Virus record (IMG/VR): IMGVR_UViG_3300043958_000214
Length of the DNA stretch: 64,000 bases
Reading direction: 5' to 3' (one strand)
Source: a virus
Position numbers and translations under genes: made by a program
Shown here: positions 2,423 to 64,000 of the stretch, in pieces
Layout: each line of letters begins with the position of its first letter
How positions within the stretch are numbered: the stretch's first letter is position 1
Notes under the pieces: model-generated
Seen by the model: only the letters and a program-made list of their open reading frames with translations
Database searches by the model: none
What the model was told of the DNA's origin: nothing

Positions 2423-5275
2423 TTACTGGGCCGGTTCGATCCGCAGGCCGAGGCGGTGGTCATAGCGCATGCGGTAACGTCTGCGGCCCACGGCGAAGAG
2501 GTATTCGGATGTGGCGTCGGGGAGGGCGCGGGCGACGATCACGTGAATCTGATCCGCATAACGCGCTTGCTCCCGGTCCGGCTTCCAGTAGTTTTTCGTC
2601 GCGTCATGGACCGCCTTGGATGCCCATTCCGGCAGCGGGACGGTGATCCGCCGGCAGGCCTGCTGCGTGCGCCTAGACGGGGTTGCGCCGCGCTGGAGCT
2701 CCACCGTGTTGCCCAACCCGATGGAGGCGGGGTCGACCCAGCTGGGGGGCATAGGCGCGTTCGGTGTTCGAGGGTCCTCGGTGAGCCAGACGACCTCGAT
2801 GGAGTCGTCTTCCTCGCGAACCCCGATCTTCGCGTCGAGTTCTTCCCCGGTGACGCCGAGGGCGCCCCGGCGGCGCTCGTCCCACCCTCGAAGCGTCTGG
2901 AACTCCTCCCCGGCGAGCATCGCAGTGCGGGTGTCGGGAGCCGGCTTCATGCCGCGCTTTTGCTCGGCGGACTTTCTGGCGTTGCGTGCCCTCTCGGCAT
3001 CCTTCGCTCGCGCGTCGGTGAGCGCCTCCCTCCAGGTTCTCTCGAGAGAGTTCACGGTCGCCTCGTCCTCGGCATAGGCGGCGGCGACCTGGGTGGGGAT
3101 GTCGTCGGGGAGGCGGATGCCGTCCTTGCTGGTGCCGAGGGCAATGAGCGCGGAGCGTAGGAGCGGGTACATGCCGTAGACAAGGTCTGAGCTCTTCGGG
3201 GGAGCCACGGGCGTCGACTGCCATTGGGCGGCGACGATACGGAGCTCGGGGGCGCGCAGGGCGTCGGGCCGTGGCGTGTCTGCGCGGCGGTGGAGGCGCC
3301 CCGCGCGCTGGAGGACGAGGTCCCAGGGCGCGAGGTCGGTGACCATCAGGTCGAAATCAATGTCGAGGGACTGCTCGACGACCTGGGTGGCCACGACGAT
3401 CCTGCGGTACGGGCGGGCGGTGGCGTCACTGCCGAGCTCAGCCTCGATGAGCGTCTCGATGGCCTTGCGGTCCGGGGCGATGAACCGGGAATGATAGAGG
3501 ACGACATCATCCCCGAAGACCGTGCGGAGCCTCGTGTACGTGTCTTGTGCGCGCCCTACCGTGTTGCGGATGACAGCGGCGCACCCGCCATGATCGAGCT
3601 TGGAGGAGAGCATGCTGGCCAGGGCGTCGTCGTCATCGTCGTCGAGGACGAGGCGCACGGTCTGCGTGCGCTCAGATGCGGGCACGACCCTCTGGTGGAC
3701 CCTGTTGTCGGGAGTGACGTAGGTGATGAGCGAAGGGCTAGATGTCACGGCGGTGATCTCGCGCGTTTTCAGGCGGTACCCGCGGGCCCCGTCGCGGTAG
3801 GCGTTGACAAGCCGGATCCTCGACGCGGGCGGGAGGGTCGCGCTCATGAGGATGACGGGGATCCCGTACTTGCCTGCCCAGGCGAGGATGATGTCCAGGA
3901 ACACGCACATGTGCGTGTCATAGGAGTGCACCTCGTCGATGAGGAGGACGCCGCGAGCCATGCCGAGGTGCCTCATGGCCGTGTTCTTAGCTTGAAGGGC
4001 CGCGTAGAGGGCCTGGTCGATGGTTCCAACGACGAGGTCTGAGAGCATGCCCCGGCTGGTCCTCATCGCGAGCCACGGATGAGAGACAACTGCCGAGTCG
4101 TCGCTGCGCGGGGAGGGGAGCCGGACGAACGTATCGCTGAGATCGGCTCGCGAATGAGCGAGGAACGTGCTGACGGGATGGCTCGGACGCGAGGCCTCGA
4201 CCATGCGGATGAACCGTTCGAGGATGGAGTTCGCGGTGGCCATGGTCGGGAGGAAGACGTGGATCCCCGCCATCCCGGCGTTCCCCGCCATGACTGTCGC
4301 CGCGAGCGCGCCGGCTTCTGTTTTCCCTTCGCCCATGGGGGCTTCGATGATCATGAGCCCGGGGGTCCTGTTGCGGGCGATGGTCACGGCCGCGGTCTGG
4401 ATCGGCCGGGCGGAGGGGCGATGGAACCATTGCTGCATCCACTTTTCGGGCGGGAGTCCGGTGTCGGTGGGGTTCCAGTTGACTGGGAGTTGGGAGTGCC
4501 CCCACCCGCGGATGTGGCGGACGCGCATGTTGGCGGGTGAGGTCTGTTCGAAGGGGATCCCCGGGTAGCCGAAGACCTCGTGATCGTTGGACGCGATCCA
4601 GTCCGCTTCGGTGATGAGGCCGAGCAGGAGGATCTGGGCTTCGCGGGTGATTTGGGACCAGGGGCCGTTCGGGGCGAGCCACTGCGTGGCGTCGCAGGCG
4701 TCAATGAGGTGGTTGAGTAGGTCGTTTCGGGCGGCGTTCCATTGGGGTGAAATCCCATATGCCTCCCAGCCGCGGCGGTGATCCTTGAGTTCGCTGTCGT
4801 GTGGCGCGTGCCCGTGGTGGGCGCCGAGGATGTAGCCGATGCGGCGCGCGTCGAGGATCGACCAACCGAGCTCCTCTAGGTAGGTCTCGACGATGATTTG
4901 GCTGTGGATGTTGTGGTGGTAGTCCTCGAAGGGGTCCCCGGGGATTAAGGGAATGTCGAGGCCGAGGTCGATGATCGGGTCGGAGAGGTCTGTGATCTTG
5001 CTCTGGAATGCGGGCGTCGCTTTGCCGATGTCGTGGGCGCCGGCGAGGAAGGCGACGAGTGAGCGCGCCGCCTCCTGCCCTCCTACCGCGCCGGAGACGA
5101 AGTTATGGACGTGGTCGCTGACCGCGCTGTCCCACAGGTGAAGCGCGACATTCGAGGTGTCGGACATGTGGACGGCGAGAGGCACCCAGGAGATGACCTG
5201 GCGTTCGCGTGTCCGAGCCTTGCCCCATAGCGCGGCCGCTGCGGGACTTAGGGAGTCGATGTCCATGTCGTACAT
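2423..5275 (-). CDS. cas3: Cas3 HD nuclease-helicase
   Basis: HD domain (LAVHMSD, GAHDIGKA), Walker A APMGEGKTEA, DEVH, SAT, QRAGRLHR; start set at ATG 5275 because the ORF-track extension runs through the CRISPR array. Confidence 0.95.
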   Translation of the reverse strand: MYDMDIDSLSPAAAALWGKARTRERQVISWVPLAVHMSDTSNVALHLWDSAVSDHVHNFVSGAVGGQEAARSLVAFLAGAHDIGKATPAFQSKITDLSDPIIDLGLDIPLIPGDPFEDYHHNIHSQIIVETYLEELGWSILDARRIGYILGAHHGHAPHDSELKDHRRGWEAYGISPQWNAARNDLLNHLIDACDATQWLAPNGPWSQITREAQILLLGLITEADWIASNDHEVFGYPGIPFEQTSPANMRVRHIRGWGHSQLPVNWNPTDTGLPPEKWMQQWFHRPSARPIQTAAVTIARNRTPGLMIIEAPMGEGKTEAGALAATVMAGNAGMAGIHVFLPTMATANSILERFIRMVEASRPSHPVSTFLAHSRADLSDTFVRLPSPRSDDSAVVSHPWLAMRTSRGMLSDLVVGTIDQALYAALQAKNTAMRHLGMARGVLLIDEVHSYDTHMCVFLDIILAWAGKYGIPVILMSATLPPASRIRLVNAYRDGARGYRLKTREITAVTSSPSLITYVTPDNRVHQRVVPASERTQTVRLVLDDDDDDALASMLSSKLDHGGCAAVIRNTVGRAQDTYTRLRTVFGDDVVLYHSRFIAPDRKAIETLIEAELGSDATARPYRRIVVATQVVEQSLDIDFDLMVTDLAPWDLVLQRAGRLHRRADTPRPDALRAPELRIVAAQWQSTPVAPPKSSDLVYGMYPLLRSALIALGTSKDGIRLPDDIPTQVAAAYAEDEATVNSLERTWREALTDARAKDAERARNARKSAEQKRGMKPAPDTRTAMLAGEEFQTLRGWDERRRGALGVTGEELDAKIGVREEDDSIEVVWLTEDPRTPNAPMPPSWVDPASIGLGNTVELQRGATPSRRTQQACRRITVPLPEWASKAVHDATKNYWKPDREQARYADQIHVIVARALPDATSEYLFAVGRRRYRMRYDHRLGLRIEPAQ

Positions 5276-5279
5276 GCCC

Positions 5280-5289
5280 TGTGTGTGCC
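5280..5289 (-). promoter_or_regulatory. Class-B motif (cas3)
   Basis: GGCACACACA-GGGC-ATG. Confidence 0.65.
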
Positions 5290-5316
5290 GCGAAAAACCG
5301 ACGCAGCGCACAACGG

Positions 5317-5588
5317 GGGCTATCCCCACGCGGGTGGGGAACATCAGGAGCTTGTTGTCCCCCGTCTGTCTGAGGACGGACCATCCCCACGCTGGTGGGG
5401 AACATCGGGTGGGAGAAGAACTCCTCGGGCGGGGCCTGGGACCATCCCCACGCGGGTGGGAAACTAGACGCTGCCGGAGGCGGTCAAGGCTGGTGGGCGG
5501 ACCATCCCCACGCGGGTGGGGAACATGCCGTTGTAGGCCGTGACGACGGGGGCGTCGTTGGATCATCCCCGCATGCGGCGGGGAACGA
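5317..5588 (-). CRISPR. Type I-E mini-array, 5 repeats / 4 spacers
   Basis: 28-nt repeat ATGTTCCCCACCCGCGTGGGGATGGTCC (minus) at 5317, 5378, 5439, 5499; divergent 29-nt copy at 5560; spacers 33, 33, 32, 33 nt; palindromic CCCC..GGGG stem. Confidence 0.95.
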
Positions 5589-6016: not shown

Positions 6017-7036
6017 CTAGAGACTGTTGATGGGTGTGGCACCCGCGGTCGGGTCGGTGACGAGGCTGTATCCGCGGTCGTCGGCGTGAATGAGCGCCCG
6101 CATGAGGAGGTCCACGTCGCTGGCGTAGAGGCCCGAGTTTGGTAGGGCGTTGAGTTCGACGACGATGGTCTTGCCGGTGTCGGCGTGGGTGGCGAGGTCG
6201 AGGACGAACGTGCCCATCCCGTCGCAGACGCGCTGGGCGAACAGTCGGTAGTCCTGGGCGAGGTCTGGGCGGTCCTCGACAGGGCTGTCAGGGTCGTTGC
6301 GCCTTCGGCGCGTGCGCATGTCGAAGGCGCCCCGGGCGGGGTCGTGGTCGAGGGGCGTGTACTCCTCGATGCAGCCGGCGCCCGTGACGGGGACACCGTC
6401 GACGACGAACAGCCGGTACTCGTGGGTCATGGGGATCCACTCCTGGGCCAAGAGCGCCTTCTCGGCCCCATCAAGGCGGACGACCGCCCAGTCGAGGGCG
6501 TCCCAGATCCGCTGGGACATGACGTCGGGGTCAGGGTCGAGGTCGAGGAACCAGATGCCACCCTTGGACTGGGCGGCCTTCAGGACTCCCCTCTCCACGC
6601 CCTGTTCGGCGAGGTATGCGAGCCAGTGGGCGGCGCTGTCCGGGCGCTGCCTCTCAGTGTCGAAGGTGACGCGCTGGTAGCGGCGCCCGCCGTAGCGCTT
6701 GAGGAGCGGGTGCATGAGGAACCGATCGCTTGCGTCCATGCCCTCTTCGTACATCGGGACGGGCCCGAGCCGATGCCGGAGCGTGTCCGCATCCCACGGG
6801 CCGAGCGAGACCTGCAGGTCTCCCCCGCTGGCCCGCCACGCGGCCGCCATCCGGCAGATGTCCTCCCAGCAGTACTCGATGTCGGCGCGCGGGTCCGGGT
6901 TCTGCCAACCATCCCACGCGGGGTCGGCCGCCCGGGCGTCCGCGAGCGCGCGTTCCGCTCGGGCACGTTTGTCGTGGTCCCAGGTGGTGGGGATGCCGGG
7001 GTAGGCGCGGATGCCGCCGGAGTAGAGGGTGGTCAT
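6017..7036 (-). CDS. ATP-grasp protein, R2K/DUF4343-like
   Basis: EWIPMTHEYRLFVVDG, FVLDL, VVELNALPNSGLY. Confidence 0.7.
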   Translation of the reverse strand: MTTLYSGGIRAYPGIPTTWDHDKRARAERALADARAADPAWDGWQNPDPRADIEYCWEDICRMAAAWRASGGDLQVSLGPWDADTLRHRLGPVPMYEEGMDASDRFLMHPLLKRYGGRRYQRVTFDTERQRPDSAAHWLAYLAEQGVERGVLKAAQSKGGIWFLDLDPDPDVMSQRIWDALDWAVVRLDGAEKALLAQEWIPMTHEYRLFVVDGVPVTGAGCIEEYTPLDHDPARGAFDMRTRRRRNDPDSPVEDRPDLAQDYRLFAQRVCDGMGTFVLDLATHADTGKTIVVELNALPNSGLYASDVDLLMRALIHADDRGYSLVTDPTAGATPINSL

Positions 7037-23505: not shown

Positions 23506-25566
23506 TCACTCGACCATCGCCAGGAACTCGGCCGGGGTGACAGTGCGCACCCCGAGGCTCTGGGCTTTCACGTACTTGCCGGTCGTGGACGGTTCAGAGA
23601 CGAGGAGGCTCGTCTTCTTCGAGACCGAGGAGGCCGCGCGCCCACCCAAACTCTCAATGAGTTCCTGGGCCGTCTGGCGCGTGTAGCCGGGGACGTTTCC
23701 CGACACGACGACCGTCATCCCCTCCAACGGGCGCCGGTTCGCCGGAGCGTTCTCGGGTGTGCCGGCCTCGATGCCGGACCCGTCGCGAGCGGGAGATGCC
23801 CCCATATTCACGCCACGCTGGGCGAGGCGGTCCAGGAGACGTTCCTGACGTTCCAGCTCGGCATGGATCAGCTCCGCCTTCTTCTCCCCCACACCCTCAA
23901 CAGCCTTCAGCTCCTCGACAGTCGCGCCCATCAGGCGCCCCTTAGAGGGGAACGCGGCGGCGAGCCGGCGGCTCATGGACCGCCCCGTTCCTCGCAGGCC
24001 GAGCGCCGTGATGACTCGCGCCCACGCAGACGCCTTGGCCTTCTCGATCTCCGCAGCGATCTTCACCGCGGTCTTCTCCCCCACCACGCGCCCAGACTCG
24101 AGCGTGAGATGAGCGAGCGTCTCCCCGGTGAGGTCGAAGACGTCAGCCAGATCCTCAACGATCCCCTGGTCGATGAGAGCGTCCACGATCTCGGCGCCCA
24201 GTCCTTCGATGTCGAGGGCCGCGCGGGAGACCGCGTAACGAACCTGCGCGCCGACGGAGAGTTCCGGGGATGTCGAGCGCCACAAGAGCGTGGACTTATC
24301 CCATTCCCCACCCGCGGGATCGGTGGCCGGCGGCTCCCACCTCACGGCGTCCGCCGGACGCTCTGTCATGTCGACACCGTCGATATAGGGAATGACGTCG
24401 TTCGCCCGGCGGATCGTCACCGTGTCACCGACACGGATGTCCTTCTCCTGCATCCAGGAGACGTTGTGTCCGCTCGCGTACGTGATGGTGGTCCCACCAA
24501 CGAACACAGGCTCGACCTCAACGCGAACAGCCAGTCGCCCAGTGCGTCCGATATCCGTGGTGATACCGACGACCCGGGTCGTCCCCGTCTCCGCGGGGTA
24601 CTTGTAGGCGACCGCCCACCTGGGGTGGTGCGACGTTGAACCCAAGCGCTCGCGATCCGCGTCCTCATCGGCTTTCACGACAATGCCGTCCGTGGGAAAT
24701 CCGAGGGTCGGGCGCGCGTTTCCGAAAGCGCGCACAAGGTCGAGGACGCTGCCCTCCTCGCCGGCACCAACCGGAGCCATCGGAAGGACGGACACAGCCC
24801 GCTTTCGGGCCGAGGCGATGCCGCACTGCTCGATGATGCTCAGGCGTCCCGAATAGGTCGAGCCGTCCGTCCCGAAAACCAACTCGTAGGTGTCCTCATG
24901 AGCCGACCTGGGCAGGATCACGTCGTAGCAGGCGAACGACAAGAGGCCCGCGTACGCGGGGTCCCCCGCCCGCAAGATCCCAGCGGCGGCATTGCGCTGG
25001 TTGATGAACGGCTTCGCCCCTTCACCCTCGCGGGTGTCCTGGGCGGCGGGGAAATCCCTGTCCGCCATGTACACCTCGCCGCGAACCTCGACGGTGAGAT
25101 GGCGTCCCCGGCCCTCCAGACGATCGGGAAGCCCCTGGACCAGGAGCTTGCGGATTCGGGGCGTGATGTCCTCACCGGTGCGCCCGTCCCCGCGGGTGGC
25201 GATCAGCGCTAGCTTTCCGAAGCGGTACTCGGCGCGGATGGCGAGACCGTCGAGTTTCGGCTCGACCACGACGGAGCCCGGCGTATCTGCGACGAATACG
25301 CGGACCGCATCGAGCGTGGGGACCTTCCCCATGGAAAGCATGGGCGGGCAGTGGGTGACATCCCCGCCCTTGGACGTGCCTGCGGACACGGCGTTGAAGA
25401 GGTCAGCGTACTGGCCGGCTAGACCGGGGTCCTCCGCAACGGCGATACGCAGCTGCTCGATACCGTCGTCGTAGTCGGCGTCGGACATCAACACCGTGTC
25501 GGTGTCGTAGTAGGCCGCCGCTGCGGCACGAAGACGGCTAGCCAGCTTTGCGATTTCAACGTTCAT
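23506..25566 (-). CDS. ligA: NAD-dependent DNA ligase
   Basis: YYD..MSDADYD, EPKLDG, EVRGE, DGIVVK, HhH repeats, C-terminal BRCT. Confidence 0.95.
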   Translation of the reverse strand: MNVEIAKLASRLRAAAAAYYDTDTVLMSDADYDDGIEQLRIAVAEDPGLAGQYADLFNAVSAGTSKGGDVTHCPPMLSMGKVPTLDAVRVFVADTPGSVVVEPKLDGLAIRAEYRFGKLALIATRGDGRTGEDITPRIRKLLVQGLPDRLEGRGRHLTVEVRGEVYMADRDFPAAQDTREGEGAKPFINQRNAAAGILRAGDPAYAGLLSFACYDVILPRSAHEDTYELVFGTDGSTYSGRLSIIEQCGIASARKRAVSVLPMAPVGAGEEGSVLDLVRAFGNARPTLGFPTDGIVVKADEDADRERLGSTSHHPRWAVAYKYPAETGTTRVVGITTDIGRTGRLAVRVEVEPVFVGGTTITYASGHNVSWMQEKDIRVGDTVTIRRANDVIPYIDGVDMTERPADAVRWEPPATDPAGGEWDKSTLLWRSTSPELSVGAQVRYAVSRAALDIEGLGAEIVDALIDQGIVEDLADVFDLTGETLAHLTLESGRVVGEKTAVKIAAEIEKAKASAWARVITALGLRGTGRSMSRRLAAAFPSKGRLMGATVEELKAVEGVGEKKAELIHAELERQERLLDRLAQRGVNMGASPARDGSGIEAGTPENAPANRRPLEGMTVVVSGNVPGYTRQTAQELIESLGGRAASSVSKKTSLLVSEPSTTGKYVKAQSLGVRTVTPAEFLAMVE

Positions 25567-25597
25567 GGACTCAGGCTCCTCATTTGCTCTCGTTCTA

Positions 25598-25608
25598 GTT
25601 GTGAGGCA
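25598..25608 (-). promoter_or_regulatory. Class-A motif core (ligA)
   Basis: GCGTC-N11-TGCCTCACAAC. Confidence 0.75.
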
Positions 25609-25628
25609 ACGGGAGCCGTGACGCACCC

Positions 25629-49025: not shown

Positions 49026-52000
49026 TTAGCGCCCGGCCTCGGCGTTCTTGAGCCTCCCCGCCTTCTCCTGCTCGCGGGCGATGACGTCGGTGGAGGTGGT
49101 GGAGATCTGGGAGAGGAAGTCCTTCGGAATCAGGATCTGGGTGGGCACGACCCGGTCTGACAGGTCGACGTACAGCCCGATGGCCCCCCTGATGACCTCC
49201 CCGGTTTCCGCGTCGCGCAGGGCTCGCATCGAATTCCAATTGGGTTCCTGTGACCCCTCGATCGTGGCAGGGGCCGACAACCGGGCCAGGCGCTGCTCTG
49301 TTGCTTGGAGCTTGAAAAGCTGGAGGGCGAGACCCGCTTCGCCATTGTCCGTGTTCCCGAACCGGTCCTTCTGCCCCGTGCCACGTCCAAGGGGAAGAAT
49401 CACCCCGCGGCTGATCCCGCCGAGAAGATCAGCCTCGACAAAGTCCGAGACCTTCTGGGAGGCGAGGACCACGAGAACCTGCTGGGAGCGAGCCAGCCGG
49501 GAAAGACGGTCAAGTTCGGCCTTGCCTTCCGGGCCGATCATGAACTGCCACGCCTCGTCAAGGACGACGACGCCCTCCCGGTAGGCGACAGCAGCCGCAG
49601 ACCCGTACACCATCATGCGCAGAACCCACGACCCGATGCGTTGGATCATGGAGGACCGCTGCCACCCGCCCTCCCCCGTATCCGGAAGAGCGATCCGAGC
49701 ATTGCCGACCATGATCAGCGACAGCCCCTCCGCCTGCCGGAGAGCCTGCCCATTCGGCGAAAACCCGAGGATCGCGCGGGCCAACGGAGTGGCCTCCAAC
49801 ATCCGCAAGATGGGCGTGAGCAACCCGTCAGGCAGAGGCGTCGCAGCGTCCGAGATACGCAAAGCCTCACCCACACAGGTCCCACCGTGCTCAACCCCGT
49901 ACCGCAGCGCCGAAAGCAGGTCGACCTCGAAACGCCCCCGCAGGTCCCCACCCCACGGATCGATGGAAGAGATCATCTGAGAAGCCAGCTCCACCGCCTC
50001 TCCGATCGTGTTCGCGAAAGACTCCGGACTCGTACGGTCAATGAGGGTGCGAATCGGGTCGAACACGCCATCAGCGGACGCGAGATCATCCAAACTCATC
50101 ACTTGCCCGCCAAGCTTGCGCACCGGCTCAGAGAAATCAGACCCCGGTTTCGCATCAATCATCACGATCGGCGTCCGCCACCCACGCGAGGTTGGAATAT
50201 GGGCCCACTGCCTGACAAGGGAAAGGAGAGTCATCGTGTTGTGAGAAGGAACGAAGCCCTCGACCAAATACGTATGGTCCGGGGAATCCACGGACAAGCA
50301 CCGACAGGCCCGCGGCGCAACCGCCTCAATCCCCGTGATGCCGAGACGCAGCTGATCCTCCCCCACCGACCTGGGAACAAGCCGCGCCTTCTCAGCCACA
50401 CGGAAGACAGTTTCAACAGTCGTGAAACCCACCCGGTAGCACATGCCCACACGGTGCCCGGCATCCGCTTCGGCAATACTCATCGACGCCTTGATCCCGA
50501 GACCGCGAACCAGCTCAAGGACATCCCCCGCCAAACCCTCACCCTCCACAGCGAGCTCGCATTCCCCGCCATGCCCAACCCTCCCCCTCTCATCCATGAG
50601 ACCCTGGAGAAGAGCGAGCCGCTGCGCCCGCGAGGCGCGCTGATAGATCGCAGGGATGCGATCACCGACTGGAACGCCGACCGAACCCCCCGCAGCACAC
50701 TCCCCGCCCAGCCACACGCCCAGAGAATACGGATCCACCGGAAGAACCGCGTCAGGGAGATCGAGCGCTCGCGGGAGCCTGATCGAGAAGTTCGCGCAGA
50801 CGTTGTCGCCTTCGCGCACGCTCACTCCCTGGTCGAGCATCTCCCCCGTTGACATGACGACTTCTCCTGGGTCCAGGCTTGGCTCGTCCGCGTGCTGCTG
50901 CTGGACGCGGATGGCGAGGCCTCGGATAGCCGCCTTGGTGGAGTAGACGAGGGGGCGATACCGCATCGCCGCGACAGGATGTTCGGCGGATGGGCGCGGA
51001 TGCCGACCGTCTCGGACATTCCGCTCGGCCCCGGTAGGGACGGACCGGGGCGCCACGTCCACCATGCGCAAAGACGCGTGGATCCCATTTGGGCCTCTCC
51101 AGGGGGTTGCGTCGATGTCGTTGACGATCTCCCACAGGTCTTCCAGGGCGGAAAGGTGCTCGTCGTCATAGTCGTCAGCCAGGTCGCAGAGCCGCCACGC
51201 GAGGTCACGCGCCTCCCGGCTCGTCTCGACGCAGTGGCGGGAAGGGGATGGATGGGGCTGGGCGCGCCGACGGACCACCCACTGGTGATTCGAGTCGGCG
51301 TCGATGTGTTGTCCGTCTGAGAGCGTGAGGCGGTACAGGTGGGGCTTGCGTTCGATGGCGGACAGGTCGGTGACCCGGCATGGGCGCCCATCGCGCCCGA
51401 GCACTTCGTCGCCGACATTGAGCTGTCCGACGGTCGTCCAACCGGTGGGTGTGGGGATGCGCGTCGTCAGCGCAAGCAGCTTCCCCGACCCCGTTCCTCC
51501 GGCGACGACAAGGAGCGGACCTCCGTCGCCTTTCGTTGCAGCGAAGGGGGAGATGTAGGCGGGCTGCTGGTCAGCCTCCGTCAGGCCGAGAAGGGCTCCG
51601 CTCGTGTCCCCCACGGTCGACAGGTTCGCCAGTCCGGCGCACGCGATGGTCTGGGCCGGGAGTTCGTGAACCCTGGGGGCGGCCTTGACGTTGGAGCAGA
51701 GTTTCATCTCCTCGAAAGCCGCCTGCTGGCGTGCGGGAAGCGCTCCGAGGTGGATCGAAGAGTCTCCCATGAGCCTGCCGACGTCCTTTTGGACCCGGTC
51801 GAGGGCGACGACGATGGAGGTATCGATGAGGGTGGGTGTCCCCCCTTGGGTTCCGTAGGCGGCCTCGACTTGGGAGAGGATCTCGATCTGCTGGTCTTGC
51901 TCAGCCTTAGACATGAGCCCCTGGGCAACGCGGTCCTCACGATCTTTGCGGAAATTGTCTCGCCCCCGAGCGAGTTCGGCGCGGGTGATTTGGGCTGGTT

Positions 52001-52865
52001 CGATCTTGCCGCGAATGCTGATCGCCCGGGCTCCCTTGAGGACGAGGTCGATTCCCCACTGGGCTCTGGCAGAGGTGGCGTCGATCCAGGGGAGGTCGAA
52101 CTCGGCCGCCGAGGCGAGAGTGAGCGCATAGGCCTGGGAAGGTAGTCTCCAGTTTTCGCATTCTGCGGGGTCCATGTCTGCGGCCATCTGGGCGGCTGAG
52201 ATGGTCCGGCAGACGTGGATGTGGTCGTCGTGGAGGAGGATCGGGACGTCTGGCGTGTCGCCGAAGTTCCACCACCCGCGGGCTAGGGCGAGCTCGTCTC
52301 GGCCGAACGTGTCGACGCCGAGTTCCCGCATGCCCGCCTGGCGGAAGATGGCGTCAACGACCTGGTAGTCGTCCTCGAAGTCCTCGACCGGAATGCCGCC
52401 GGTGAGGAACGTCTCCGACACGGACTCGACCGCGGACGCCACTCTTCCCTTGCCTGCCCTGGTCATCTTGGGGAGGAGTCGTGTCCCCACGAGGAGAAGC
52501 CTCCGGAACGTGTACTCATCGCCGTAGTCGCGTGTGAGCATGTCGGCGTTCGGGAGGCCGTGGTTGGGCTTGAGGGGGGTCGGAATATTGAGGAGGAGCA
52601 GGTGCAGGTCGCGGTAGGAGTCGCGATTGAACTGGCGGCGTTTCCCGGTTGTGTGCGCGAGGGCGGCCAGCTGCTCCATGACGCGGAGGATCGGGACGGA
52701 CGCTTCGAGGACCTTCTGGGAGTCGCGGGCGTCCTGGATGGGGGACAACGGGGCTGCGCGGTAGCACCACATGCTGGAGTTTTTCGGCCCGACCAGTCTT
52801 CCCCCGTCGAGGACGCGGCTGATCAGGGTGGTGCCCTGGGGGGCGGCAGTCAGAATCTCACTCAT
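49026..52865 (-). CDS. VirB4/TraC-like conjugation ATPase containing an intein
   Basis: GGTGSGK|TMTL, VVVLDEAW, LARSQQVLVVLASQ. Confidence 0.8.
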   Translation of the reverse strand: MSEILTAAPQGTTLISRVLDGGRLVGPKNSSMWCYRAAPLSPIQDARDSQKVLEASVPILRVMEQLAALAHTTGKRRQFNRDSYRDLHLLLLNIPTPLKPNHGLPNADMLTRDYGDEYTFRRLLLVGTRLLPKMTRAGKGRVASAVESVSETFLTGGIPVEDFEDDYQVVDAIFRQAGMRELGVDTFGRDELALARGWWNFGDTPDVPILLHDDHIHVCRTISAAQMAADMDPAECENWRLPSQAYALTLASAAEFDLPWIDATSARAQWGIDLVLKGARAISIRGKIEPAQITRAELARGRDNFRKDREDRVAQGLMSKAEQDQQIEILSQVEAAYGTQGGTPTLIDTSIVVALDRVQKDVGRLMGDSSIHLGALPARQQAAFEEMKLCSNVKAAPRVHELPAQTIACAGLANLSTVGDTSGALLGLTEADQQPAYISPFAATKGDGGPLLVVAGGTGSGKLLALTTRIPTPTGWTTVGQLNVGDEVLGRDGRPCRVTDLSAIERKPHLYRLTLSDGQHIDADSNHQWVVRRRAQPHPSPSRHCVETSREARDLAWRLCDLADDYDDEHLSALEDLWEIVNDIDATPWRGPNGIHASLRMVDVAPRSVPTGAERNVRDGRHPRPSAEHPVAAMRYRPLVYSTKAAIRGLAIRVQQQHADEPSLDPGEVVMSTGEMLDQGVSVREGDNVCANFSIRLPRALDLPDAVLPVDPYSLGVWLGGECAAGGSVGVPVGDRIPAIYQRASRAQRLALLQGLMDERGRVGHGGECELAVEGEGLAGDVLELVRGLGIKASMSIAEADAGHRVGMCYRVGFTTVETVFRVAEKARLVPRSVGEDQLRLGITGIEAVAPRACRCLSVDSPDHTYLVEGFVPSHNTMTLLSLVRQWAHIPTSRGWRTPIVMIDAKPGSDFSEPVRKLGGQVMSLDDLASADGVFDPIRTLIDRTSPESFANTIGEAVELASQMISSIDPWGGDLRGRFEVDLLSALRYGVEHGGTCVGEALRISDAATPLPDGLLTPILRMLEATPLARAILGFSPNGQALRQAEGLSLIMVGNARIALPDTGEGGWQRSSMIQRIGSWVLRMMVYGSAAAVAYREGVVVLDEAWQFMIGPEGKAELDRLSRLARSQQVLVVLASQKVSDFVEADLLGGISRGVILPLGRGTGQKDRFGNTDNGEAGLALQLFKLQATEQRLARLSAPATIEGSQEPNWNSMRALRDAETGEVIRGAIGLYVDLSDRVVPTQILIPKDFLSQISTTSTDVIAREQEKAGRLKNAEAGR
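50238..51479 (-). other. Class 3-type intein (414 aa) in the ATPase P-loop
   Basis: Starts Leu; HQW (B), CRCLSV (F), PSHN/T (G); LAGLIDADG remnant LQGLMDERG. Confidence 0.85.
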
Positions 52866-55979: not shown

Positions 55980-56820
55980 CTATGCGGAGGCGGCGAGCTG
56001 CGACTCTCGGATGCGCATGAGTCGGAGCGCGTAGGCGGCTTGTTGGGGGACGACCCCGTTGCCGAGGGCTCGGAGCTGCTGGGGGCGCGGGATGTCGACG
56101 CCGGTCACCCAGCCGTCGGGGAGGCCCATCATCCACTCGACGAACCGCGGCGAGAGGCGCGGTGAGCCGTGCGCGCCCGGCTCTGTCGGCGCGGGAGCAG
56201 GGCGCCCGCAGACACGCTCCCAGCGCCGGATCGCGGGCGCGTACTCGCCGAACCTGTCCTCCGACGCGATGCCGTTCAGGAGGAGTTCGTCAGAGCGCGA
56301 GCCCGACCGGCGCTTGTGCCCTCCCTCGACGTCAGCGACCTGCGGCGTGGGCAGGAGCTTGTCGATGCTGTCCAGCCCGTAGCGCACCGCGGCCCCCTCG
56401 GACGGGGATTGATTGGACCCGTAGCGTCCTGCCGTGGGGGTCGGCAGGAGCGTCAGAGGCTCTCCGCCACGTCCGCGATCGACGGCTGATGACCCCCCCC
56501 CCCGCCCTGCGCTTCGCCGGCGGCTGCCCCCCACGGTCCTCCCCATCCCTGGCCGCTGGGGTAGGTAGTAGGCGCACATTCTCTGTGCTGGAGCCACCAC
56601 GAGTCGCCCTCGGGGTGTGCAACAACGAAAACTCGATACCTCTGGTGGGGTGCGCCGACATCGGAAGCGCGTACGCCCACCCACTGCGCGTCATACCCGA
56701 TTGAGGCCAGGTCTCCGAGAACGCGCCCGAGAGCGCGGAGAAGAGGTCCATCTGCGCGGACTCCCAGATGTCCCTCTCGGGACTCCATGAGGCTATAGGC
56801 GGGTGCTGAAAGGGCTCCAC
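55980..56820 (-). pseudogene. C5 DNA methyltransferase beta part (LLPTP repeats, motifs IX-X), out of frame at a G11 tract
   Basis: Frame from 56820 (SETWPQSGMTRSG..LLPTP) joins the frame ending ALGNGVVPQQA if one G is removed at 56493-56503 (841 to 840 nt). Confidence 0.7.
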
Positions 56821-57217
56821 GGACGTTCTCCCATACGACTAGATGCGGGCGGAGTGTGCCGATCGCTTTGATCATGGATTCCCACAGGCCCGAGCGCGTG
56901 CCAGGCCTCATGCCGGCGCGCTGCCCGGCCAGGCTCAGGTCCTGACACGGACTTCCGCCGGCGATCACGTCGACCGGCTCCACGTCGGCCCAGTCCACGG
57001 CGGTGACGTCCCCGAGATTCGGAGCGTCCGGGTAGCGCTGGGCGAGGATCGCCGGAGCGTTCCCGACCACGATCCCCTTCTCGTCGAGCTCGACGATGTC
57101 CGATACCCACGCCGTGCGAGCCGGGCCGAGGGCCATCTGCACGCCCATACCGAGACCTTCATAGCCGCTGAAAAGGGACCCGAGCTTGGGCGGTGGGATG
57201 GAAGCGGATGGGCTCAT
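56453..57217 (-). CDS. C5 DNA cytosine methyltransferase alpha part (motifs I-VIII)
   Basis: SLFSGYEG, GGSPCQD, ENV, QRYRVF. Confidence 0.85.
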   Translation of the reverse strand: MSPSASIPPPKLGSLFSGYEGLGMGVQMALGPARTAWVSDIVELDEKGIVVGNAPAILAQRYPDAPNLGDVTAVDWADVEPVDVIAGGSPCQDLSLAGQRAGMRPGTRSGLWESMIKAIGTLRPHLVVWENVRGALSAPAYSLMESREGHLGVRADGPLLRALGRVLGDLASIGYDAQWVGVRASDVGAPHQRYRVFVVAHPEGDSWWLQHRECAPTTYPSGQGWGGPWGAAAGEAQGGGGGHQPSIADVAESL

Positions 57218-61713: not shown

Positions 61714-62895
61714 TTAGGCGCACATCTCCCAGAGGCGCTGGAGCGTGCGGCGGCGAACTTCCCCGGTTCCCAGGTAGTCGCGGAGCTGAAGGTTGAGTTG
61801 AGGGGTGGTCGTGATGGTGACGCCTCTGACCCTGGTAGGATTGGGGCAGCCGTCGGCGATGACCCAGACCCTCACGGTGTGCCCCGGGGGAAGGTGTCGG
61901 CCGAGCGCGGAGGCGGTCTTTTTCGCGGTCTTGGCGAGCCCTGCGACGTGGAGGGGAGTCGCCGCGCACTCGAGTGTGACGATGAGGGCGACGCGTCTTC
62001 CTACGACGACCGCGTGGTCGATCCCCGTCGCGGCGTAGGGAGGCCAGATGTTGTGGAAGAGGCGGGCTCCGGTGAGGTCGGAGAGTCCTCGCAGCGTGTC
62101 CAGGAGCGGGTCCGAGACCGTGGGAGCGGACTGTTCGAAGACGCGCGCGGCGTCGACGGGGTAGGCGCCGATGCCGGGTCGTTTGACGCTTCGGATGTCG
62201 CGAATGGCCCAGGATAGCCACCACCCCGCCGCGCACGTCGCGCTGCCGGCTGCGAGCGTGAGGAGCGCGTGGGGAAGGCTGGTGGCGGATGCGGCCGCGA
62301 AAACGCCTCCTGGCAGCGCGAGGACGAGAATGAGGCGGGCGCCGGCAAGCGTTGCCCGGGTGTGGCGAAAACGCCACATGAACCCGTCGGAAAGGGTGGC
62401 GAAGATGAACGCTGTCTCGGTGATGAGGGTGATGAGCCCCAATGGCGCGGGACTGCCCCACCACGTGGTCCACGCGAGGAGGACGTAGGCCGATACCGTC
62501 AGCGAGATGACGGCGACCGGGATCTCCCACCAGTGTGTCTGGTGAGGCGCGATCGTCTCGGCTTCCGGTTGCGGGGTCTGGGCGGCGGTAGCGGACCACG
62601 GGTCTGGTTTTGGCACCGGCCGAGCGGGCTGCGGCGCGCGCGGACGCGGGTGCGGCGGTGTGGTGGCGGGCGCGTCCTTGGGACGGCGGCTGAGATCGTA
62701 GGCTGCTCTCTTGGAGTCGTTGGAGAGGGTGGCCCACGCCTCGTTGACGAGGGCGGTCATCTCCTCGCCTTCAGGACCTGCCACGTCCGGGTGATAGGTG
62801 CGGATCGCCTTGAGGTAGGCCCTCTTGATGGCGGCGCGATCCGCGTGCACGTCGACTCCGAGGAGCCGGTACCAGTCCCTAGCCGGGTCTGCCAT
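61714..62895 (-). CDS. DnaJ-domain membrane protein with NERD-like C-terminus
   Basis: DWYRLLGV, YHPD, NEAWATLS; 4 TMs; IDHAVVVG. Confidence 0.8.
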   Translation of the reverse strand: MADPARDWYRLLGVDVHADRAAIKRAYLKAIRTYHPDVAGPEGEEMTALVNEAWATLSNDSKRAAYDLSRRPKDAPATTPPHPRPRAPQPARPVPKPDPWSATAAQTPQPEAETIAPHQTHWWEIPVAVISLTVSAYVLLAWTTWWGSPAPLGLITLITETAFIFATLSDGFMWRFRHTRATLAGARLILVLALPGGVFAAASATSLPHALLTLAAGSATCAAGWWLSWAIRDIRSVKRPGIGAYPVDAARVFEQSAPTVSDPLLDTLRGLSDLTGARLFHNIWPPYAATGIDHAVVVGRRVALIVTLECAATPLHVAGLAKTAKKTASALGRHLPPGHTVRVWVIADGCPNPTRVRGVTITTTPQLNLQLRDYLGTGEVRRRTLQRLWEMCA

Positions 62896-64000
62896 CAGTG
62901 CTTCTCACACTCGGCGACGACCACTCGCTGGTGGAACCCTTCTCCCCAGGGTGTGCCGTCCACCCGGATCCCGGACTCCAGGGCCTTGAGCCTGGGGACG
63001 GTGATGGAGGAGACGATGCCGCCAGTCACTCCGGAGGCGGCGATGCCGGCCTGGTCCCTGAGATGAGGGGGAACGTCTTCGCCTTCATCAAGGGTGATGA
63101 GAATGGAGGACCGGGCTCCCTCGTCCGCCCGGTTGAGTTCCATGACGGCCTCGGCGGTGGTCCCGGATCCCGCGAACGGGTCCAGGATGACGGCGCCCGG
63201 GTCGTTGAGGGTGACGAGTCGGATCCAGCGAGCGAGGATGTCCGGGTCTTTCGGGAAGGGGAACGGGGTGCGGCGGATGCCGAACAGGTCAGCGAGCCTG
63301 TCGGCCGCGTGCTTGCGGGGCGCGTAGAACACGTTCGAGGCGGCGGCCGCGGTGTGTTCGTCGAGGTAGAGCATGGCGGCGGGCTGGACGCTTTCGTCTG
63401 GCCCGAAAACGATCCTCCCCTCCGCTTGCATCTTCTCGAAGGTCTCCCTGGTCATGCGCCACCCTCGGGCCGGCTTCGCGCACGCCCGTCCGGTGACCGG
63501 GTGGATGATGTCGTAGGAGTAGCGGGCCGTGCCGGGGCTGACGAGGGGCCCGCGCCTCCACGGGCGCCCATCCTCGGTCAGTCTCGTGTACTGGCGGACG
63601 CCGGACGGCGGGTTCTGAAGGCCTCTGAGGTGCTTCTGCCACCTGGCGGTGGCTTCCTTGGGAGAGTTCGCCTCGCGGGCGATCCTCCTGGCCGTTTCCA
63701 GGAGCTTGTCCACCCCCTCCTTCGGCTCCCGCCACTTGATGTTGGCCTTCTTGAGGGCTTGACGCGACTTCGTATAAATCAGCATGTAGTCGGCCGTGTT
63801 GGCGATAAGGGGTCGGGTGGAGCCGATCTGGCCGGAGTGGATGAGCATCGAGATGAAGTTCTCCTCCCCGAAGACGGAGTCAAGGAGGATGCGGAGGTAA
63901 GCGACTTCGGAATCGTCGATCGCCATGATGAGGGTGCCGGTCTCGGAGAGGAGCTCATGCATGAGGAGGACCCGCGGCCGCATGAAGTTCGTCCATTGGG
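62895..64000 (-). CDS. N6-adenine DNA methyltransferase (type III Mod-like), 5' truncated by window
   Basis: IDDSE, FGEENF, FPFPK, LDPFAGSGTT. Confidence 0.9.
   Translation of the reverse strand, partial: QWTNFMRPRVLLMHELLSETGTLIMAIDDSEVAYLRILLDSVFGEENFISMLIHSGQIGSTRPLIANTADYMLIYTKSRQALKKANIKWREPKEGVDKLLETARRIAREANSPKEATARWQKHLRGLQNPPSGVRQYTRLTEDGRPWRRGPLVSPGTARYSYDIIHPVTGRACAKPARGWRMTRETFEKMQAEGRIVFGPDESVQPAAMLYLDEHTAAAASNVFYAPRKHAADRLADLFGIRRTPFPFPKDPDILARWIRLVTLNDPGAVILDPFAGSGTTAEAVMELNRADEGARSSILITLDEGEDVPPHLRDQAGIAASGVTGGIVSSITVPRLKALESGIRVDGTPWGEGFHQRVVVAECEKH

Follow-up and report, generated by a model that had tools for sequence, protein, structure and literature searches.

In a 64,000-nucleotide stretch of viral DNA (IMG/VR record IMGVR_UViG_3300043958_000214, hereafter the window), the coding sequence of a C5-methyltransferase (C5-MTase) is distributed over three reading frames that meet at a run of eleven G residues. 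The reading that we favour, with moderate confidence, is an orphan C5-MTase made of two polypeptides encoded in overlapping frames, in which the length of the G tract would decide which chain receives the C-terminal module.

Three reading frames and a G11 tract

The gene comprises the following features:

56453..57217, minus strand: alpha open reading frame (frame A) as assembled, 254 aa, from the ATG at 57217 to the TGA at 56453; C5-MTase
56828..56832, minus strand: Shine-Dalgarno-like (SD-like) GGGAG, 7 nt upstream of the beta GTG, from sequence reading
56504..56820, minus strand: genuine part of the beta frame (frame B, +1 relative to alpha), GTG start at 56820-56818; matches phrog_1008, E 1e-14
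56493..56503, minus strand: G11 homopolymer (C11 on the plus strand), within the conserved beta unit KR(R/K)AGGH
56453..56455, minus strand: TGA immediately preceding TLLPTP of frame C; relatives (L039) natively end their short beta chain here
56332..56492, minus strand: what frame B encodes beyond the tract in the G11 state, a tail of 53 residues rich in Arg (VISRRSRTW..) with its stop at 56332
55980..56492, minus strand: frame C (third frame) with motifs IX-X, stop at 55980; matches phrog_1008, E 1e-45
56385..56399, minus strand: GAGGGGG-N5-GTG in frame C with the GTG at 56387; start of a 135-aa fragment

The motifs expected on one chain of a C5-MTase (PF00145), i.e. I, IV (PCQ), VI (ENV) and VIII (QxRxR), are all found in the translation of frame A, where they read FSGYEGLG, GGSPCQDLS, ENV and QRYRVF, respectively. 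Motifs IX and X are both intact, and they lie in frame C, which at G11 is continuous with neither alpha nor beta. The Pfam profile PF00145 matches frame A with an E-value of 2e-24 over residues 13-206, corresponding to profile positions 4-166 of 324 only, and the C-terminal half of the C5-MTase fold is thus absent from alpha. The alpha ORF is also matched by phrog_363 (E 1e-54). Its coordinates and its assignment to motifs I-VIII had been proposed in the initial annotation, and both agree with the four motifs seen and with the Pfam match. Motif VIII is followed by a Gly-rich spacer. Downstream of G11, alpha enters HQPSIADVAESL and is ended by the TGA at 56453..56455; in relatives, this same sequence and stop form the C-terminus of the short beta chain.

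After a stop, frame B opens at GTG 56820; until the tract, its translation is ..SETWPQSGMTRSG..LLHTP..LLPTP... Its N-terminal module (N-module; ..IASWSPERDIWES..SETWPQSGMTRSG..) is conserved, consists of non-Pfam sequence and overlaps alpha motifs VI-VIII. It is followed by two LLPTP-type units, LLHTPRATRGGSSTE.. (LLHTPRATRGG..) and LLPTPAARDGEDRGG..AKRRAGGG. In alpha motif VI (WENV), the codons for W-E make up the GGGAG, and the CGT-GGA (R-G) that comes next gives the beta GTG. Beta starts in relatives are an ATG arising from the ENV codons (AAT-GTN), GAGGAGG-N6-ATG, or a GTG after ENVRG with GGGAG; the window (56832-56818) is of the last type, and the signals of the relatives are the same or stronger.

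Frames A, B and C meet at the G11 tract, which encodes poly-Gly in both overlapping frames and has the position and length given in the initial annotation. Beyond it, frame C contains a linker (SSAVDRGRGGEPL), two further LLPTP units, WERV..PAPAPTEP, motif IX (FVEWMMGLPDGW, including FVEWMMGLP) and motif X (LGNGVVPQQA, including GNGVVP). Gene callers predict a 135-aa fragment in this frame (P0127, P0247), which could give a third, free C-terminal piece. The Arg-rich 53-residue tail of frame B has no relatives and represents an out-of-frame tail of beta. Apart from G11, no homopolymer of the 64-kb window exceeds 6 nt. G/C runs of at least 7 occur once in the window compared to 21 times in dinucleotide shuffles, showing that the element avoids such runs. 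Runs of at least 6 are also strongly avoided (13 observed, 70 in the shuffles).

Family layouts and selection on the +1 frame

The best full-length relatives of the gene are P0007 (406 aa) and P0008 (416 aa), which are 77-78% identical to it. Both read ..YPSGEGWGGPWRAAAGEA.G..SAVDRGRGGEPLTLLPTPTAGRYG.., i.e. they correspond to frame A of the window up to the tract and to frame C beyond it. P0008 is encoded by the IMG/VR phage contig L039. In a DNA alignment of the window with L039, the sole frame-changing difference is an excess of 5 nt at the tract (GGGC-G11-TC in the window, GGGC-GGGCGGGC in L039), and the next ~120 nt are nearly identical. A tract of G12 or G9 would thus restore a single alpha chain of 411-412 aa. 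A succession of three independent frameshifts, from A to B, back to A and on to C, was rejected, as the closest relatives require only the change at the tract. The gene is a mosaic, its 5' side being ~80% identical to L039 and its 3' side 89-100%. A 54-nt segment of the window (56569-56622), which alpha reads as HPEGDSWWLQHRECAPTT and beta as a complete LPTPRATRGGS.TE unit, is missing in P0007 and P0008 and present in relatives of the P0009, P0013 and P0015 type.

The family shows several layouts. In the short nested layout, which is that of L039, beta stops just before a frame-A LLPTP unit. A conserved beta unit of relatives reads ..KR(R/K)AGGH(Q/G/S)P(S/T)(L/I)AD..L followed by the stop, and the run of the window lies in the AGGH codons. 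A beta stop 1-4 codons before the frame-A LLPTP unit is present in 16 of 61 non-redundant relatives (L045, L047, L059, L046 and others). The junction of the AESL stop with TLLPTP is therefore native family architecture and was rejected as a lesion, and the 2-nt CT insertion that had been postulated at this position is not needed. Such beta stops often arise where GTA, a rare codon for Val, precedes GAC, which gives TAG in the +1 frame, and short direct repeats (GACCTG-TA-GACCTG) are found at beta-stop/LLPTP junctions, suggesting that the points of frame hand-over may arise via small duplications at unit borders. In the long nested layout, the beta stop is located ~4 codons before the frame-A motif IX; the frame-A spacer of these relatives is junk-like but open, even at 46% GC (L082). 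In the split layout, alpha ends 11-32 residues past motif VIII, with the repeats and motifs IX and X all encoded by the +1 ORF (L090, L084, L093 and others). Finally, an EcoHK31I-like layout, in which the +1 frame encodes motif IX and frame A encodes motif X, is found in the L103-L118 group only.

Selection on the +1 frame was assessed in 110 homologous loci retrieved via frame-A peptides. Over motifs VI-VIII, the +1 frame is open in 101 of the 110 loci, and the +2 frame in 13. The +1 translation is conserved (..IA.WNP.RD.WET..DLFS..S..FSETWP.SGMTRNG.AY.LPTS..T..S.SS.LPTP), and this conservation persists at 33-40% frame-A identity and across 36% to 73% GC. We compared 62 homologues of <80% identity with synonymous shuffles that preserve each protein and its codon usage. 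Within the overlap (alpha residues 137-205), the +1 frame contains 1 stop in 3600 codons, compared to 60 ± 7 expected (lowest shuffle 45). For the +1 frame of an upstream control region (residues 12-130), 158 stops were observed and 175 expected, and for the +2 frame of the overlap 93 and 103, respectively. Amino-acid identity in the +1 overlap is 0.377 and that of the shuffles 0.253 (z 33). Stop depletion and the synonymous shuffles led us to reject frame B as a shadow of DNA conservation, as which off-frame tblastn matches in intact phage MTase genes might be read.

Selection across the family supports the overlapping +1 frame, in the window the ORF from 56820, as real coding sequence. The second frame inside alpha, already noted in the initial annotation, is confirmed in this respect, and its two-polypeptide idea is supported by the stop depletion and by the occurrence of the N-module described below. 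This evidence from the beta frame, its selection and the layouts comes from the family and is absent from a reading of the window sequence by itself.

A profile search with the N-module yielded 13,361 protein cluster representatives, 4,232 of them at E <=1e-10. In nearly all of the best 150 of the 13,361 clusters, the module is located at residues ~2-75, and this N-terminal position fits a separate beta polypeptide. A word-index search with frame-B residues 1-72 returned no match owing to the sensitivity of the word index, while the HMM search found thousands. In the AlphaFold model of P0008, which matches M.HhaI chains, the catalytic core and the C-terminus are confident, and residues 204-281 and 128-152 have a pLDDT <50. 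These low-confidence residues are the parts of alpha that overlap beta, and by itself alpha shows no confidently predicted recognition domain. The natural long beta of L090 alone was predicted with a pLDDT of 61, mostly at low confidence and with disordered repeats. A VIA-align comparison of the beta model with the PDB gave a best Z of 2.0, which is uninformative and yields no structural match, and a profile search of beta against PDB sequences returned no match.

Two characterized enzymes resemble these layouts. M.EcoHK31I (E. coli HK31, YGGCCR; Lee, Kam and Shaw 1995) has its beta subunit encoded in another frame inside alpha (PMC2836561, PMC3404938), with the recognition domain on alpha and motif IX only on beta (PMC3404938). 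The initial annotation had drawn this comparison, and it is apt in that the window also encodes a putative two-polypeptide C5-MTase with a second chain in a different, selected frame within the alpha gene. The relatives L103-L118 also separate motif IX (beta) from motif X (alpha). In contrast to M.EcoHK31I, beta here consists of a 70-residue N-module over motifs VI-VIII plus LLPTP repeats and lacks motif IX in the canonical state of the window, where motifs IX and X lie together in frame C; the likeness is one of layout.

In M.AquI (Agmenellum quadruplicatum, CYCGRG; Karreman and de Waard 1990), alpha carries motifs I-VIII together with a portion of the variable region, and beta the rest of the variable region and motifs IX-X (PMC3404938). 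This arrangement is natural in L090, L084 and L093; the window as assembled does not have it and would adopt it at G10 or G13. Unlike in M.AquI, the alpha and beta ORFs share 227-371 nt, as measured in eleven complete relatives of the split layout, and the beta chain of the family has a conserved N-module encoded over alpha motifs VI-VIII.

A nested frame has also been annotated in one family member. The GenBank record of Mycobacterium phage Babsiella (NC_023697.1) lists a +1 CDS, gp55 ('DNA methylase domain protein', LPTPRASRGASTTE..), inside the MTase gene gp54. It differs from the beta frame described here by an internal TTG start that leaves out the N-module, and it carries neither a functional claim nor a homopolymer.

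Tract length and the state of the enzyme

The frame arithmetic of the tract gives three states:

G9/G12: alpha of 411-412 aa with motifs I-X; beta of 121-122 aa ending in HQPSIADVAESL (layout of L039)
G10/G13: alpha of 294-295 aa that ends in junk; beta of 279-280 aa comprising four LLPTP units plus motifs IX and X (M.AquI-like)
G8/G11/G14: alpha of 253-255 aa ending in the native tail of beta; beta of 161-163 aa with a junk tail

At G8/G11/G14, motifs IX-X are on neither chain, and the assembled state is the null one of the three. As G11 leaves the C-terminal module on neither chain, the enzyme as assembled is probably inactive. Each in-frame state corresponds to a natural architecture of relatives. 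Removal of one base at the tract fuses frame B to the frame of motifs IX and X, giving 279 aa without a stop. The initial model, in which G10 or G13 switches the enzyme on, holds to this extent and is incomplete, since G9 or G12 joins frame A to the same frame.

Our proposal is as follows. Alpha would be the catalytic chain, and beta would be translated in the +1 frame from its own GTG within alpha motif VI, its N-module and LLPTP repeats forming, as we infer, part of the DNA-recognition region. Among intact relatives, the nearest have an alpha that continues through further LLPTP units and motifs IX-X and a beta that ends just before them. In the window, the codons for the beta unit KRRAGGH, rich in G, appear to have turned into a pure G11 run, the length of which would assign the C-terminal module to alpha (G9/G12, nested), to beta (G10/G13, split as in M.AquI) or to neither chain (G8/G11/G14). 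Because an 11-base run slips readily, a population is expected to contain both kinds of in-frame variant. That the tract acts as a three-position switch, by which the catalytic chain, the recognition chain or neither obtains the C-terminal module (motifs IX-X plus two LLPTP units), is an unlikely extension of this proposal; if true, a population would hold two differently built enzymes, maybe of different activity or specificity, in addition to an off state.

Phase-variable MTases provide the precedent for such a tract. Type III mod genes form phasevarions in Haemophilus, Neisseria and Helicobacter. As in phase-variable MTases, a mononucleotide run inside the gene sets the frame and is long enough for high-rate slippage. 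The window differs from them in that the enzyme is an orphan, Type II-like C5-MTase on a mobile element, the copies of which show one frame state, and in that the run lies in a two-frame overlap with two in-frame outcomes instead of a simple on/off. A further difference to a contingency locus is that the repeat is not kept at the same site in relatives: the KR(R/K)AGGH unit of 14 relatives contains G runs of only 3-6, and G/C runs are not enriched in the genes of the family. The tract is thus not a conserved switch. When other viral contigs were searched for a G run at KRxA, two matches appeared, both in unrelated genes.

Phase variation of the tract is plausible but unproven. The part of the initial annotation that called the locus a phase-variable switch, now off, stands in that the tract sets the frame and the assembled state is null; the remainder meets with one frame state in all database copies and with no ON allele. 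Protein searches found no in-frame (ON) allele among database proteins of 88-445 aa, and exact-flank patterns matched no viral or metagenome contig. A search of the same contigs with a conserved 32-mer returned the contig of L039 only, and the plasmid collection contains no close match to the DNA of the locus.

The assembled tract might instead be an assembly or base-calling error, with a true length of G12 (or G10) and an intact gene. Long G/C homopolymers are error-prone on several platforms, and a change of one base is enough to bring back the layout found in the closest relatives. However, 6 contigs from JGI/IMG and Logan carry an identical truncated alpha, called as 231 aa with the Gly run and an HQPS tail included, and 11 contigs carry the separate C-terminal ORF, though these may come from the same reads. 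We consider such an error quite unlikely.

A dead-end frameshift, in which an accidental run arising in this lineage has inactivated an MTase that the element does not need, appears improbable as well. Here the run would slip, switching would be unselected and the gene would be decaying. Such an end point is in line with the lineage specificity of the tract, with database copies that are all null without an ON allele, and with a second MTase on the element (N6_N4, 62895-63983). On the other hand, everything but the tract is intact in all three frames, and dN/dS in comparison with L039 is 0.18 downstream of the tract (dS 0.36) and 0.38 upstream; the value after the tract argues against an old pseudogene, so that any inactivation would be recent. 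Moreover, in an element that purges G/C runs of at least 7 (1 versus 21 expected), a tolerated G11 is conspicuous.

It is very unlikely that the enzyme is active despite the break, either by assembly of the short alpha, the junk-tailed beta and the 135-aa piece, or by slippage of RNA polymerase or the ribosome that supplies the product. Transcriptional slippage on G runs is a possible source of in-frame product, and GAGGGGG-N5-GTG precedes the 135-aa piece as a candidate start. Fragments of C5-MTases complement each other, as for M.BspRI, M.BsuRI, M.HhaI and M.SssI, and M.AquI is naturally split (PMC3404938). Yet the 135-aa piece lacks the first frame-C LLPTP unit, and a three-piece layout occurs in 0 of 61 non-redundant loci.

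Genomic context, implications and distant homologues

The surroundings of the gene are those of a conjugative-type element. Its neighbours encode a VirB4-like AAA_10 ATPase (49026-52865), a protein with G5/DUF348, helicases and an SNF2 protein; upstream of it come the genes for a DnaJ-domain protein (61714-62895) and for the N6_N4 MTase (62895-63983). The neighbouring genes include no restriction enzyme adjoining the C5-MTase gene. Together with the conjugation-type neighbours, this fits an orphan MTase of the anti-restriction type. Only the MTase gene is shared in synteny between the window and L039, which points to a cassette moving between phages and conjugative elements. A Cas3 (HD + helicase) gene and an NAD-dependent DNA ligase gene (2423-5566, 23506-25626) lie on the strand of the conjugation-type genes.

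If the tract varies, it would constitute a contingency switch in an orphan anti-restriction MTase on a conjugative-type element of Actinobacteria, a group with little documented phase variation outside M. tuberculosis. Phase variation by homopolymers has been described there for M. tuberculosis glpK and others (PMC6667613, PMC10334774). The window is an independent case in a C5-MTase family of phages and mobile elements that databases treat as single genes, the genes of which harbour another gene, under selection, in the +1 frame across motifs VI-VIII. For annotation, this suggests that many 'frameshifted' or 'split' methylases may not be broken. In structure prediction, the alpha 'linker' would be the shadow of beta, and the prediction of target specificity from sequence would also be affected by the hidden beta frame.

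Several distant homologues show further arrangements. A distant member with 40% identity (L100, IMGVR_UViG_3300006802_000867) contains a G11 (6353-6363) and a C9 (6578-6586) in its LLPTP repeats and has motifs IX-X in the +2 frame, which makes it a second, independent case of long G/C runs at frame changes. In Luteimicrobium album NBRC 106348 (L012:6001-7500), the homologue is divided into three segments (frame A, +2, frame A) in addition to a +1 N-module, and is either broken or of a more complex layout. Lastly, gp50 of Propionibacterium phage B22 (L002:1132-3231) is a homologue of 699 aa with an insertion of ~350 residues at the Pro-Cys of motif IV, which by its borders (GGSPC / FVAGTSVL ... 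VVHN / CQDLS) looks like an intein.
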